Shown: positions 5,148 through 63,883 of the stretch, piece after piece | Layout: the number at the start of each line of letters is the position of its first letter | How positions within the stretch are numbered: the stretch's first letter is position 1 | DNA from: Eledone cirrhosa | Lineage: Eukaryota | Direction: 5' to 3' | NCBI GenBank assembly: GCA_964016885.1 | Contig: OZ024740.1 | Coordinates: forward strand, 108,500,001 to 108,564,000 | DNA length: 64,000 bases | Notes under the pieces: generated by a model | What the model was told of the DNA's origin: nothing | Database searches by the model: none | The model's input: the letters and a program-made list of their open reading frames with translations, nothing else | Translations under genes and position numbers: made by a program

Positions 5148-5215
5148 ATAGAAATGACATTCCTGATGATTTCATATGAATGAAACAGTTCTAGTCCTGT
5201 AGAAGTCATTTCTAT
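5148..5215 (+). ncRNA. type I hammerhead ribozyme
   Basis: stem I ATAGAAATGAC(A)TTC/GAAGTCATTTCTAT; CTGATGA 5163-5169; stem II TTC-ATAT-GAA; GAAA 5182-5185; stem III CAG/CTG; GTA cleavage triplet. Confidence 0.9.
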
Positions 5216-5632
5216 ATGTAATAAAGATGCCTATACTTTACCAATGTATTGAGTACCTTTTTTAACTGTGATTGTTACCCCCCCACACCACTCAGGAACT
5301 TATATATATATATCATCATCATTTAACATCCATTCTCCCATGCTAGACGGGTTAGACGAGTTGTCTCATTGTGAGACAAGTCAGATCAGATGACCGAGTC
5401 TTGCTCATACAGGACTGTGTCTGTTTCTTTTTGTTGTGCCACCTACATAACCACTTTACAATGTGGACTGAGCACTTTTTGTTATGGCACCAAAATGACC
5501 ACTTTACAGTGTGGACTGGGCACTTTTTATCGTGTCATTAACACAATCACTTTACAGATTGGATTGGGTGTTTATATATAGTATATATGTATTTGTGTGT
5601 GTGTGTATATATATATATATATATATTATAAG

Positions 5633-5680
5633 CACAAATTAAAGTTTAAGCAAAGAATCCCTGCTTTCACCCTTAACGAG
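5633..5680 (-). mobile_element. 5'-truncated copy of the hammerhead-bearing PLE end seen at 59493-59556
   Basis: Reverse complement CGTTAAGGGTGAAAGCAGGGATTCTTTGCTTAAACTTTAAT matches 59508-59548. Confidence 0.7.
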
Positions 5681-6180
5681 TGAAAACTAGTTTCAGTGAT
5701 TCTTTGATCGGTACTTATAATAAATATTTGCTCTATGGGTTTTTATATATATATATTTTACATATATATATTATCCTTATTGAACCCTCTTCGGATTGTA
5801 GTCTTCACATTTATTATTACTGTGTATTTTGTGCCTAAAATAGAAACAATTATTACTGGGTATATGTGTGTGTGTATATCTATGTGTGCACCTGTCTGTG
5901 TGTGTGTGTATATGTATATATATATGTGTGTGTATATGTATATATTGTGTATATATGAATATATATATGTATATCATCCTCATCATCGTTTAACGTCTAT
6001 CTTCCACGCTAGCATGGGTTTAGACGGGAATTGTCCCACTAGAGGCAAGATTGGTTGTCTTGCTCGTATAGGACTGTCTGGCAGGTTTTCTACGGCTGGA
6101 TGTCCTTCCTCAGGAAATATATATATATGTGTGTGTGTGTATATATGTATATATATATATGTATGTGTGTGTATATATAT

Positions 6181-7445
6181 ATCATCACCGTTTTACGTCC
6201 GTTCTTCCACGCTAGCATGGGTTAGACGGGTTGTCCTGTTGTGGGCAGTGTCTGGTCGGCTGACCATGCCTTGCTCATACAGGAACTGATCTGGCTTGAT
6301 TTCTAACACCAACCTCATTTACAGTGAGTGCTGGGTGCTTTTTCGTGGCGCCTACACGTCCACTTTACAGTGTGGGCTGGGTGCTTTTTTTGCCATGGCA
6401 CCTCCACGACCACCTTGCGGTGGGGGGTGTGGGGGCATATTGTCTATATGCTTCAGCTTGTACCCATGGGAGGTCGGGTACTCTGTATTACTGCGTGACG
6501 CCAGAAATCACGGTCGTGTGTCATTGCCTTTGAGAGGTGTAATTGGGTAAGGTCGGCTTTTATCACCTTATCCCAGGTCATCTTGGGTCTCCCCACTCCG
6601 CGGTTTCCATCAACTTCTAGTGCTCTGCACCTTTTTATGCAGCTGTCATCCTTCATACGCATCACGTGTCCATACCAGCGCAACAGCCTCTCCTGCACAC
6701 AGCATTTGATTCCTCTTATGCTCAGTCTCTCTCTCAATTCATTTATGCTTTGTCGTTCACGTATATTACTGTTCCACATCCATCGGAGCATGCAGGCTTC
6801 ATTTCTCTCTAATCTACGTAAGTCTTCCACCTTCAGCGCCAAGGTCTCACTACCATGCAACATTGCTGTTCGGATACACGCATCATACAGTCTGCCTTTC
6901 ATTCTGAGGGAGAAGCCTTTTGCAGCTAGCAGTGGTAGTAGTTCCCTAAACTTCTTCCATCTCGTTCTTACCCTAGTTATTGTACTTTCTGAACACCCAC
7001 CTCCGTTGCTAATTCGGTCACCTAGGTAGCAGAAGCTGTCTACTGTTTCTACAGAGCCCTCCCAGAGATTGGTGGTACTTGTTTCCTGTGGCTGTTTGCT
7101 GCTTGCTGTCTCAGCACAGCTGCTGCATGTGAAGCCTACATTCTTAATTAAGCTTCCTGAGATCCCGCTACATCTCTTGTGTACCCATTGTTTGCATTTG
7201 GGGAAGAGAATGGAGTTCCTACCTACACCTTTCCTACATACTGAGCAAGGCCATTTCCCTGAGGGGATCTGGGTTCTGTTTTCTCGTCTACTTACAAGGA
7301 CCTTAGTCTTTGTCATGTTGACTTTGAGACCCTTTCTTTCTAGTCCCTGCTTCCAAGTTTGGAATTTATTCTCTAGTTCTACCATAGATTCAGCTATGAG
7401 TGCGAGGTCATCAGCATACAGGAGTTCCCATGGGCATCCGGTCTT
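6181..7445 (-). mobile_element. 5'-truncated RTE-clade LINE (RT C-terminal half plus 3' UTR)
   Basis: ELLYADDL, GLKVNMTKTK, SFCYLG, MLHGSET, LRWYGHVMRM, GRPK-TW motifs; the N-terminal part of track ORF 6453-7595 is microsatellite read-through. Confidence 0.95.
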
Positions 7446-7521
7446 GTGTGTATATATGTATATACACACATATATATACATATATATGTGTGTATATATG
7501 TATGTATATATATCTATATAT

Positions 7522-8706
7522 ATCTCTATTATAAAGCTGATGGCCGTATGTATGTAACAAACTTTTCGCCAAATGGCTGGACAAAACAGCACCAAATTTA
7601 TACCATAGATGTAACTTTTTCCAAGTAAGAAAGTGAAGGTATTTTTGTCTACTAAATTTAGTTAAAGGATTAAAGATATTTTATTGTTTATTTAAATATT
7701 CACTGCTTTAAAATTTTCAGATGTCAACACTTCCAGTTAGCAATCTCTCTCTTTCTTAGTCTGTCTTTTTAGATATATACATAGCTATAACGTTACGCCC
7801 TTATAATATCTGTCTGTATGTCTGGCTGTTTGCATTACGAAAACCATTCAGTACATTGGCTTCGCTACCTGCGTGTGTGTATATATATGTATATATAGTG
7901 TGTGTATATATAGTGTGTGTGTGTGTATATAGTGTGTATATATATATAGTGTTAATATCATAAATAAGAGACAGTTTAATTTGTACATTTTATTACAGCA
8001 TTCCTTTATACATATATATACATACATGTTATTTACAGTTGTATAAAAAAGAAGTATAATTGTTTCTACTTTTGGCACAAGGCTAGCAATTATCCCAGTA
8101 TATTACTGGTACTTTATTATATATAATATATATAATACAACATTCCTCTCTCTTTCTTACTCTGTCTTTTTAGATAGATTCATAGCTATAACGTCGCGCC
8201 CTTATAATATCTCTGTCTGGCTGCCTGTCTGCATTGACTTTGCTTCTAACCAACTTTTAATTAATTATATATAAGTTCCGTCTAACCCATGCTAGCATGG
8301 AAGAACGGACGTAAAACGGTGATGATGATGATGATGAATTATATATTCGTATACATATTTTCAACAGTAATACTGTACTATATATTTTCAACAGTAATAC
8401 TATACTATACTATATATTTTCAACAGTAATACTATAATATATGTATTCAACAGTAATACTATACTATATATTTTCAACAGTAACACTATAATATATATTT
8501 TCAGCAGTAATACTATACTATATATTTTCAACAGTAATACTATACTATATATTTTCAACAGTAATACTGTACTATATATTTTCACCAGTAATACTGTACT
8601 ATATATTTTCAACAGTAATACTATACTATATATTTTCAACAGTAATACTATACTACACAGACGGCTTATCGTCTGTTTATCCAAGCGAAGTTAGGTACGT
8701 CAGCTA
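7522..8706 (+). mobile_element. non-autonomous Helitron-like element with internal minisatellite
   Basis: 5' TCTCTATTATAAAG start; 3' CCAAGCGAAGTTAGG..CAGCTA end resembles a degenerate hairpin+CTAG; internal duplication 7740-7840/8140-8235. Confidence 0.45.
8352..8655. repeat. 27-bp minisatellite (~11 copies)
   Basis: unit TATATTTTCAACAGTAATACTATACTA. Confidence 0.95.
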
Positions 8707-62359: not shown

Positions 62360-62648
62360 CAGAAGTTATATTTAATTTGTTGGGATTCAACAAGCTTAAA
62401 CATTTTTATAGCTGATATAAAGCACTCAGCAATTAGTGGAGTAAATACACAATATATTAATAAATGGAAACTATATTTATAAAACCATATTTATTTTATT
62501 ATACATATTTCAAGGGCAACCAAGGCAAATTATGGTGCACTTTCATATCTGATGAAAACGCACCATAATTTGCCTTGGTTGCCCTTGAAATATGTATAAT
62601 AAAATAAATATGGTTTTATAAATATAGTTTCCATTTATTAATATATTA
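62360..62648. mobile_element. fold-back unit (47490 family) turning inside the hammerhead core
   Basis: Plus-strand CTGATGA at 62549 and GAAA at 62587; arms meet at TTTCAT-ATCTG-ATGAAA. Confidence 0.85.
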
Positions 62649-62809
62649 GAAACAATTAATATATTATATATATATATAAGTATGTATACGTACATACATA
62701 CATGTATACAGACGTACAGTAGTATGTATATATACATACATGCACACATATATATATGTACGTATGGATTTACCGAACATTTATTATAATGCTCGGTGTG
62801 TTTGTAAAC

Positions 62810-62897
62810 AAACATCCCGAATTAAGCCGTACAGTGTATAGCAACCATCGTTGCAACGATGGTTGCTATACACTGTACGGCTTAATTCGGGATGTTT
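62810..62897. repeat. perfect 88-bp palindrome with no spacer
   Basis: Centre ATCGTTG|CAACGAT between 62853 and 62854. Confidence 0.9.
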
Positions 62898-63246
62898 ATA
62901 TATATATAATTCGGGATGTTTATATATATATAATCGTTTTTATCATTTATTTTGTTTGACCTGTTTAGCTTGATTTGTTTTTTGGCTTAGGTGGTTAATG
63001 CCTTCTTGACCACTTTTTCAGTTTGTATGGCGTTTTAACATATTGTTTAGCTCTAGTTTTCTTAACTATTGGAGCGCTTGCCAGCATATCTACGATTTTG
63101 CGTTTCGTTTCGCTTTTTCTACCAGCCGAAATACGATTCTCGCTGAATTTATATATATATATATATATATATATATATATATATATATATATATATATAT
63201 ATATATATATATATATATATATAATATATATATATATGTGTGTGTG

Positions 63247-63580
63247 TGAAGTATTTCCGTAGGAAAGGTACAGGAAAAGAGAGTGCTCTATGTAGGCTAC
63301 AGAGCTTTTTAGTTATGTAATAAACAACATAAGATAATTATTTTATTTACCAGTGGTTTCTTGAAGACAGATATTTATATCTGTCTTCAGTCGTCAGAAC
63401 GAATAAATAACATGGTGTGTTTATTAAATATGGATTTGAAATATGGTTTTCAAATCCATATTTAATAAACACACCATGTTATTTATTCGTTCTGACGACT
63501 GAAGACAGATATAAATATCTGTCTTCAAGAAACCACTGGTAAATGATATAATTATCTTATGTTGCTTATTACATAACTAT
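63247..63580. ncRNA. fold-back unit with complete hammerheads on both strands (minus 63343-63402, plus 63487-63546)
   Basis: TCGTT-CTGACGA-C-TGAAGACAGATAT-AA-ATATCTGTCTTCA-A-GAAA-CCA-C-TGG-TA-AATGA. Confidence 0.9.
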
Positions 63581-63589
63581 ATATATATA

Positions 63590-63883
63590 AACAATGGGTT
63601 ATTTAATTTGTTGAATTTTCAACAAATTTAATTTATAACATATTAAAAGCACTCAACAGTCTTCTTCTGGAGTATAATATCAATAATATTAATAAATGGA
63701 AACTATCTTTATAAAAACCATATTTATTTTATTATATATATTTCAAGGGTACCAATATTTTGGTACGCGCTCATCAGATAAAATACAAAATTTGGTTTAC
63801 AGATAGTGACATATTCAGATATTGCTACCCTTGAAATATATATAATAAAATAAATATGGTTTTTATAAAGATAGTTTCCATTT
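63590..63883 (-). mobile_element. fold-back unit (47490 family) with hammerhead at 63727-63783
   Basis: TTTTAT-CTGATGA-GCGC-GTACCAA-AATA-TTGGTAC-CCTT-GAAA-TATATA-TA-ATAAAA. Confidence 0.8.

Follow-up and report, generated by a model that had tools for sequence, protein, structure and literature searches.

The window, a stretch of 64,000 nt of Eledone cirrhosa DNA analysed at its full length, harbours twelve short units (Table 1), each described from a preliminary inspection as a whole or partial hammerhead ribozyme, usually with AATAAA and a tail, and with no ORF. A type I hammerhead descriptor gave six matches scoring at least 13 in the window compared with 0.15 per shuffled window (40 shuffles), and an Rfam scan of the window returned no hammerhead family among 88 weak matches. 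The core letters are intact in seven units (5148, 47490, 47861, 61545, 62360, 63247, and 63590), the first core base is altered in three (35900, 48695, and 49127), and the 36280 unit consists of the 3' half of a hammerhead only. The described hammerhead could not be confirmed for the 59733 unit, in which the fold is hammerhead-shaped but the core deviates from the canonical one at two conserved positions, and the ribozyme is only putative. Two of seven window motifs folded better than shuffled sequences (z -4.8 and -2.9); the remaining five did not. None of the twelve units holds an ATG-started frame longer than 49 aa, in agreement with the description; AATAAA is missing from 47861 and from the tail-bearing arm of 49127. 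Head-to-head fold-backs make up seven of the twelve units.

Table 1. Hammerhead units and related Penelope-like pieces in the window (window coordinates)
Feature	Position	Strand	Composition
Family F short copy	3206..3310	+	tail only; no hammerhead core
Family A1 unit	5148..5300	+	short inverted piece, hammerhead from stem I base 1, tail; stem I first base 5156, core 5163, predicted cut after 5201
Family E short copy	5627..5740	-	hammerhead 3' half
Family D unit	35900..36030	+	begins inside core, with tail
Family D unit	36283..36402	-	hammerhead 3' half and tail
Family F short copy	37240..37390	+	inverted stem III piece and tail
Coding relative of family B	40754..44176	+	inside (TA)n at either end: inverted 5' arm, then disrupted pieces of RT and GIY-YIG (41728-42859), a long 3' UTR, and a hammerhead end with tail
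Further PLE fragment	45970..47414	-	RT end, linker, GIY-YIG, joined to fold-back tail
Family B unit	47490..47845	+	inverted arm from inner start site; direct arm with hammerhead (core 47654), tail; 97% identity to 3' end of coding parent L084
Family A2 unit	47857..48042	+	fold-back of two hammerhead copies (47857-47968), then tail
Family G fold-back	48695..49107	-	core damaged here, intact in three other genomic copies
Family B fold-back	49127..49576	-	first core base altered in both arms; 97% to L084
Family E copy	58317..59560	+	RT fragment (58317-58556), 3' UTR, hammerhead end (59493 unit)
Family H fold-back	59733..60212	+	arms 85% alike; hammerhead-shaped, non-canonical core
Family B relative	61545..61741	-	hammerhead core at 61635; no tail; 86% to L084
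Family B relative	62360..62647	-	fold-back, joint inside core; 85% to L084
Family C fold-back	63247..63579	-	hammerheads intact in both arms (63397 minus, 63492 plus); tail on minus arm
Family B relative	63590..63885	-	tailed fold-back; identity about 80% both to L084 and to the window's coding copy

The reported recurrence of families far apart was found for all three pairs named, with 5148 and 47861 as related subfamilies (76% identity over 152 nt), 5633 and 59493 at 87% over 106 nt, and 3206 and 37240 at 88% over 89 nt, but both members of the last pair lack a hammerhead core. The window also contains coding pieces of Penelope-like elements (PLEs) that share the ends of the units, and judged from their sequence the units are terminal pieces of such retroelements lodged in TA repeats. 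Among genomic copies, a (TA)3 run no more than 25 nt from the unit end was present in all 29 of family B, 28 of 29 of family C, and 15 of 29 each of families A and D, as opposed to 10.5% of 9600 random places, which bears out the proposed (TA)n targeting. In the pseudo-LTR (pLTR), a type I hammerhead precedes two fixed copy ends, one directly behind the ribozyme and the other at the tail end. In the family B parent, the hammerhead and this two-end block are found at the 3' end and also directly ahead of the ORF start. An inverted arm is present in 21 of 30 family B copies, and 17 of the 21 arms begin at one position.

The suggested link to PLEs was substantiated by coding parents located for families B, A, and E. 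The family B parent (locus L084) reads (TA)n, inverted arm, pLTR, ORF, 1.5 kb 3' UTR, pLTR, and (TA)n, and its ATG follows the 5' pLTR core by 228 nt; it thus has pLTRs by partial tandem, an inverted 5' copy, and a one-ended tail. Its broken ORF comprises an RT, a linker, and a GIY-YIG-type part, and the translations of L084 and a second family B locus, L087, carry YRDD and YVGST motifs in the order of a single ORF with RT then GIY-YIG. A Pfam search with three pieces of these two loci gave nothing relevant, and the GIY-YIG match in the window's family B relative (42300-42830) is below Pfam's cut-off. For family A, endonuclease pieces 76-78% alike lie in sense about 2 kb ahead of the putative promoter at one locus (L324) and form the inverted arm at another (L322). 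No intact parent ORF was seen for any family, no coding parent was found for families C, D, F, G, and H, and no sense coding ORF was found within 1.5 kb at 30 family C and 60 family D loci. The tentative assignment of C, D, F, G, and H to the PLEs is drawn from the shared tail motif, the two fixed ends, and the fold-backs. At fixed offsets, pairing of stems I and III is seen in 72-100% of copies of families A (98 copies) and B (38) and in 66-91% of the 24 D copies; double changes occur in family A (stem I) and family B (stem II).

The motifs DKT, a CxCX5C linker, and terminal CxxC and CxH, the lack of CCHH, and the (TA)n target suggest placement of the PLE parent in the Hydra clade, the RWK of which is RWR here. 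Other features shared with this clade, which comprises C-terminal EN+ PLEs (PMC8557442; Craig et al. 2021), are the single ORF with RT then GIY-YIG, the canonical hammerhead, the inverted 5' copy, and the one-sided tail. On the other hand, the tail is about 80 nt here compared with 30-40 in that clade, the 3' UTR extends over 1.5 kb, and short copies far outnumber coding ones. Palindromic stem III loops are common to these hammerheads and to the pLTR hammerheads of Cervera and de la Pena (2014, PMC4209133), and the U3-A8 core variant described there also occurs in family F.

Counts of 5' ends among sampled copies of each family, along the lines of the check proposed earlier, gave sharp stops in families A, D, and F and spread ends in B and C. 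Copies do begin at or inside the ribozyme, as had been noticed; the 35900 unit begins within the core, and stops at stem I base 1 are frequent. In subfamily A3, which belongs to the family group of 5148 and 47861, the 5' end falls on stem I base 1 in 68 of 90 distinct matches, and the other 22 continue past it (matches sampled in genome order, 4 of 94 left out as duplicates; ends sorted by 12-base identity and inspection, the 22 run-on copies partly by eye). Sorting by gapped alignment and a 'far' criterion were rejected since they over-called extension. In the run-on sequence, a TATA box begins exactly 30 nt ahead of stem I base 1 at 29 of 30 A3 loci selected by promoter pattern, the box being interrupted in one, and CCAAT occurs between -84 and -86 at 11 of the 30. 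TATA-like words are frequent in this A/T-rich DNA. In A1, the window's own subfamily, exact matching extends to stem I base 1 in only 8 of 38 copies, five of them with a G, and no promoter-bearing copy was found. Contig cover over 5148-5300 was far higher at the hammerhead than at the A1 tail, with a linked stem I change; this difference served only as a lead to A3.

Family D stops at stem I in 10 of 16 copies, and the other six extend further and carry a TATA-like word between about -31 and -33; the count excludes 14 of 30 matches that represent one composite carried in a larger repeat. In family F, examined from the flanks of other loci and with one pattern, 22 of 60 ends fall within 2 nt of one site inside stem II, and five copies run on with degenerate A/T-rich words at -28 to -32. 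The 5' ends of family B pile up at -80 to -89 from the core in 11 of 30 copies, with no TATA box 30 nt upstream of the pile-up, and family C had no single 5' stop among the copies examined.

The base preceding the A3 stop (-1) is G in 45 of the 68 copies that stop and in 1 of the 22 that run on (Fisher p 2e-7). Genome-wide, G behind five A/T bases was counted by hand in 56 of 100 family A copies among the matches listed (of 113), with a background of 11-18%; the template base, C, stood there in 3 of 100 among the matches listed (of 113). Family F has G in 54 of 100 among the matches listed (of 351) over a background of 8-19%, a share inflated by a search pattern that omits in-phase TA junctions, and family D showed no clear extra G in 16 copies. 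In fold-backs, the inverted arm can supply part of the G excess.

A stop directly behind a promoter-like signal, often with an extra G, suggests that such copies are likely DNA copies of a capped RNA start. The shortest units thus appear to have been copied into DNA from the element's own transcript at its capped 5' end, a reading to which we assign a probability of roughly two in three. The choice offered in the preliminary description, between independently mobilised elements and random truncations, omits this third route, copies bounded by the putative transcription start, which is the best fit for families A, D, and F. A splice acceptor as the cause of the stop was considered because the helix I 5' end in D. 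virilis is an intron end (PMC4209133, in the part considered), whereas here it is the inferred transcript start; the idea was rejected, as the two template bases that precede the A3 stop differ from AG and the AG of F copies is retained.

In the proposed mechanism, the pLTR would hold a polymerase II promoter, with transcription beginning on stem I base 1 in A and D and within stem II in F. A nick in (TA)n would prime the element's reverse transcriptase, which would start at two internal sites, the fixed copy ends, and at the site pair near the RNA 5' end it would run off the capped end after 60-150 nt and copy the cap as an extra G. The G would be found on copies of only 60-150 nt because copying starts near the 5' end. 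Head-to-head fold-backs may arise by priming from both DNA strands. Run-off copies, having no upstream promoter, would be dead ends, and the template RNA could be supplied by full elements or by longer stumps that retain the promoter. The 3' pair of sites would give rise to the longer copies, which are truncated at varied places. With somewhat more reserve, it seems probable that Penelope-like RNA starts at or inside its own hammerhead and that its capped 5' end is routinely reverse-transcribed, strong-stop-like, and pasted by the thousand into TA repeats. This start-site and cap reading was not found in the literature consulted, although supplementary family lists of the cited papers may include these elements.

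Could all units instead be ordinary 5' truncations from the 3' pLTR, with pile-ups caused by RT stalling or cDNA fold-back at the ribozyme helices? The spread 5' ends of B and C and the many junctions that use short matches with the inverted arm are consistent with this. PMC4209133, in which PLE ends are reported to carry type I hammerheads, most of them solitary and scattered and some in close opposite-strand pairs, interprets the dispersed ones as truncated PLEs, in the part considered without the 5' end statistics given here. Yet the stop base is no different in copies that lack the inverted arm (A, 113 matches; F, 351), a TATA box precedes the stop by 30 nt and CCAAT stands at -85, the template lacks the extra G, and most copies that pass the stop continue for tens to hundreds of bases. 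As an explanation of all units, truncation is unlikely; for longer copies it remains valid, as it probably does for part of B and C.

Less likely still, A, D, and F could be independent non-autonomous SINE-like elements with an internal promoter, the short copies of which found new ones. Their discrete length, the thousands of candidates in a first look (3358 for A and 1145 for D), the coding parents not found for C, D, and F, and the existence of non-autonomous PLE derivatives (PMC8557442 section 10 and PMC3846280, in the parts considered) would fit. However, the promoter-like signals lie upstream of the short unit and outside it, roughly one in four A3 copies continues into a longer element, which at L324 reaches coding sequence, and the only set of D copies that have features in common (14 of 30) moves with flanking DNA in a larger repeat.

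The units had been called retrozyme-like, a label that the absence of tandem units and the coding parents of B, A, and E do not support. Animal non-LTR retrozymes are likewise short and non-coding, with a type I hammerhead and kinship to PLE pLTRs (PMC7229834; preprint 10.64898/2026.07.22.740005, which describes monomer copies; both as far as considered), and the units might be monomers copied from self-cleaved circular RNAs. Retrozymes are defined in those sources by tandem units and circular RNA, however, and the units here are single or head-to-head. Head-to-tail junctions numbered 0 genome-wide for A1 and 0 among 145 tail ends in four families, and Tandem Repeats Finder showed no array on any unit. 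The unit ends also miss the cleavage site, with 0 of 11 tail-selected A1 copies beginning there and 3 of 30 C copies beginning within 6 nt of it, counts that cover these two sets. As no head-to-tail units were found, a retrozyme origin is very improbable.

Returning to run-off from a capped RNA start, a close mechanistic parallel is Poseidon of Anolis (Frangieh et al. 2024, PMC11167929), in which reverse transcription begins internally at the pLTR-ORF junction on uncleaved RNA. Two internal start sites, with a spacing that makes the tail, and priming of both DNA strands on an uncleaved RNA template are the same in the proposed model. The proposed start sites lie ahead of the ATG here and inside the ORF in Poseidon, and no run-off copies of the capped 5' end are described in the part of that report considered. 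For inverted PLE ends, self-priming on an antisense template has also been proposed (PMC3846280). A transcript start within the pLTR is reported in PMC2377424 and PMC8557442, and the sole mapped D. virilis promoter is TATA-less and internal (PMC2377424). In LINE-1 and SVA an untemplated 5' G has been interpreted as a cap copy and the 5' part may be inverted by twin priming (PMC4859970, in part); both features occur here, but the G marks full-length kilobase copies there and copies of 60-150 nt here.

If the run-off reading is true, the genome records the transcription start of each family at base resolution, and genome sequence by itself settles the template question, showing that both fold-back arms are copied from a sense RNA that is capped and uncleaved. 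The role of the PLE ribozyme is called unclear in the part of PMC8557442 considered; its placement would suggest cutting the cap off the mRNA (A and D) or presence only in read-through RNA (F), and its position relative to the cap would be directly testable. For the solo hammerheads flooding animal genomes, a simple source other than retrozymes or random breakage would be at hand, and counts of monomer retrozymes may include such dead-end copies.

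The window has a G+C content of 36.5% and abundant (TA)n tracts, and a permissive descriptor for type I hammerheads matched it at 12 places. Six of them scored at least 13, vs. 0.15 per shuffled window. The preliminary description had assigned a whole or partial hammerhead to 12 small non-coding units; intact core letters were found in seven, a changed first core base in three, and a 3' half in one, whereas the unit at 59733 has the hammerhead shape but a non-canonical core. Self-comparison of the window sorted the units into families A-H, and the pairs 5148/47861, 5633/59493, and 3206/37240, thought to be recurrences, each fell into one family (A, E, and F, respectively). 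Head-to-head fold-backs account for 7 of the 12 units, and the tails (one-sided 3' extensions) in families A, B, C, D, F, and G contain a short motif matching GAGYRC. In the genome searched (3.0 Gb in 1796 contigs), families B and C are young, with 98-99% identity across the 40 copies scored, and A and D are older (84-95%).

Features in the window, by position, and composite loci elsewhere in the genome
Feature	Position or locus	Basis or remark
Family A	5148, 47861	self-comparison
Family B	47490, 49127, 61545, 62360, 63590	self-comparison
Family C	63247	self-comparison
Family D	35900, 36280	self-comparison
Family E	5633, 59493	self-comparison
Family F	3206, 37240	self-comparison
Family G	48695	self-comparison
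Family H	59733	self-comparison
Coding relative	40754-44176	
Further coding pieces	45970-47186; 50190-50600; 58317-58556	
Family D composite loci	L292, L295-L297, L301, L303, L304, L308, L312, L313, L317, L318, L320, L321	
Two further hammerhead-bearing ends, outside the preliminary list	29100-29260 (minus); 8750-8940 (minus)	first: close copies at L192, L323, L328
TA-flanked fold-backs of other families	38722-39321, 3020-3194, 62810-62897, 47253-47378	no core detected
Recurring TA-associated repeat family	57936-58324, 60919-61279, 62916-63144	flank pieces often beside units
Non-LTR retrotransposon pieces (RT and PHD finger)	6453-7661 and 20462-22201 (minus)	mutual identity 76%
Tandem arrays, 61 bp and 27 bp units	12019-12747 and 8351-8658	no relation to hammerhead units

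Pairing of stems I and III at fixed offsets was seen in 72-100% of the genomic copies of families A and B and in 66-91% of those of D, the low score at two positions arising because the fixed offsets extend into loops or bulges. Stem I shows double changes in A, as does stem II in B. Energy folds by themselves favour C and G only. In family E, the conserved U4 is replaced by A in all core-reaching copies but one fold-back junction (59493-59545 and 13 other copies), which, judged from sequence, would either be a fixed variant of the core or leave this spreading family with a dead ribozyme. Both copies of family H seen (59955-60005; L147) have hammerhead geometry, with core deviations at positions 4 and 6. 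Core type varies within family F (loci L133, L225, L229, L059, and L090), some copies being U3-A8 and L059 having the usual form; stem II is long.

Family B copies extend more than 520 nt upstream in 6 of 30 cases. The coding parent of this family, L084, reads (TA)n, inverted arm, pseudo-LTR (hammerhead and tail), broken ORF, 1.5 kb 3' UTR, the same pseudo-LTR, and (TA)n. The ORF comprises an RT, a linker, and a GIY-YIG-type endonuclease, and by its motifs agrees with the Hydra clade of Penelope-like elements (PLEs) as set out in section 11 of PMC8557442. Its ATG lies 228 nt behind the 5' pseudo-LTR core and 41 nt behind the tail end, which places both fixed copy ends close to the RNA start. 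Of these ends, one is the start shared by 17 of 21 inverted arms, 105 nt behind the core, and the other is the tail end, where direct arms terminate. The two are those of the PLE one-sided tail, which PMC11167929 attributes to two internal reverse-transcription start sites with both DNA strands primed. In the window, coding piece 58317-58556 continues into the family E unit at 59493. Family A has pieces of a linker and endonuclease at two loci: in L324 they precede the end block by about 2 kb in sense orientation, and in L322 they make up the inverted arm. No coding parent for C, D, F, G, or H was found among the loci examined.

The 30 best copies of subfamily A1 had no shared upstream sequence besides the inverted arm. 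Contig cover suggested that A3 is the more common subfamily, and an 18-letter A3 pattern had 1544 exact genome matches, of which 94 were taken in genome order, 90 of them distinct. Of these copies, 68 stop at stem I base 1, and 22 run on upstream. In the run-on sequence a TATA box begins exactly 30 nt ahead of stem I base 1, and among 30 loci selected by the promoter pattern CCAAT lies at -84 to -86 in 11 and anywhere within 150 nt in 15. Polymerase II promoters place TATA near -30 and CCAAT near -80, and by its words the run-on sequence has this textbook layout. In all 30 of these loci the template has C or T at -1, whereas 45 of the 68 stopping copies carry G there. Because an inverted arm can itself supply G, a genome-wide pattern behind five A/T bases was applied; a hand count of 100 listed among 113 matches gave 56 G, 21 T, 20 A, and 3 C. 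The G background is 11% behind five A/T bases, rising to 18% if GG comes next.

Family D gave 30 matches, 14 of which are one composite in a larger repeat and were left out; of the 16 counted, 10 end at stem I, and the other 6, from 5 loci, continue upstream, where a TATA-like word lies near -31 to -33. No excess of extra G was seen in these 16. The composite is a fold-back that was captured by a larger repeat and amplified along with it, the repeat having shared flanks and a minisatellite. In family F, 22 of 60 flank-derived ends fall on a single site in the loop of stem II, give or take 2 nt, and an A/T-rich word precedes this site by 28-32 nt in the five copies (four being the references) that run on. 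RNA starting at this putative promoter within stem II would thus contain just half a ribozyme. The template base at the stop is T; behind a TA run, 100 listed among 351 matches spanning several sequence variants had 54 G, 27 T, 10 A, and 9 C by hand count, the G background being 8-19% and the pattern leaving out in-phase junctions. Family B ends cluster at -80 to -89 (11/30 direct and 8/21 inverted arms) in a sample biased toward copies reaching -34, and no TATA box was found upstream of this cluster. Family C ends are spread.

The parents, the two fixed 3' ends, the sharp 5' stops, the upstream promoter-like words, and the untemplated G are established. PLE transcripts are described as starting within the pseudo-LTR (PMC2377424; PMC8557442, section 10), and reverse transcription as starting internally on uncleaved RNA (PMC11167929). 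The short copies lack the putative upstream promoter and span the predicted cleavage site, so that their RNA template would have been uncut. An untemplated 5' G in LINE-1 and SVA is interpreted in PMC4859970 as a copy of the cap. We infer that the element's enzyme probably often uses start sites close to the 5' end of capped RNA, would then run off the RNA end after 60-150 nt, and that the product would enter (TA)n singly or from both strands. Terminal base addition at the template end would leave the same G, with the RNA end still marked.

The units are real and of a known kind, as PLE pseudo-LTR hammerheads, Hydra-type TA targeting, inverted ends, and tails form a class already known. A retrozyme reading, suggested earlier, is not supported: no tandem structure was found in head-to-tail searches covering A1 genome-wide and 145 tail ends in four families, or by Tandem Repeats Finder on any unit. 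For a rotifer PLE, PMC3846280 notes TATA-like words in the pseudo-LTRs and explains solo pseudo-LTRs by recombination or deletion, and inverted ends by self-priming on an antisense template. Start-bounded, cap-marked short PLE copies were not found described in the literature searched, which covered few subscription papers, and the rule for the origin of the shortest copies is probably new and testable. Fold-backs at L039/L040, L213/L214, and L315/L316 carry a tail on each arm or the putative promoter on each arm, the latter placing two such promoters head to head.
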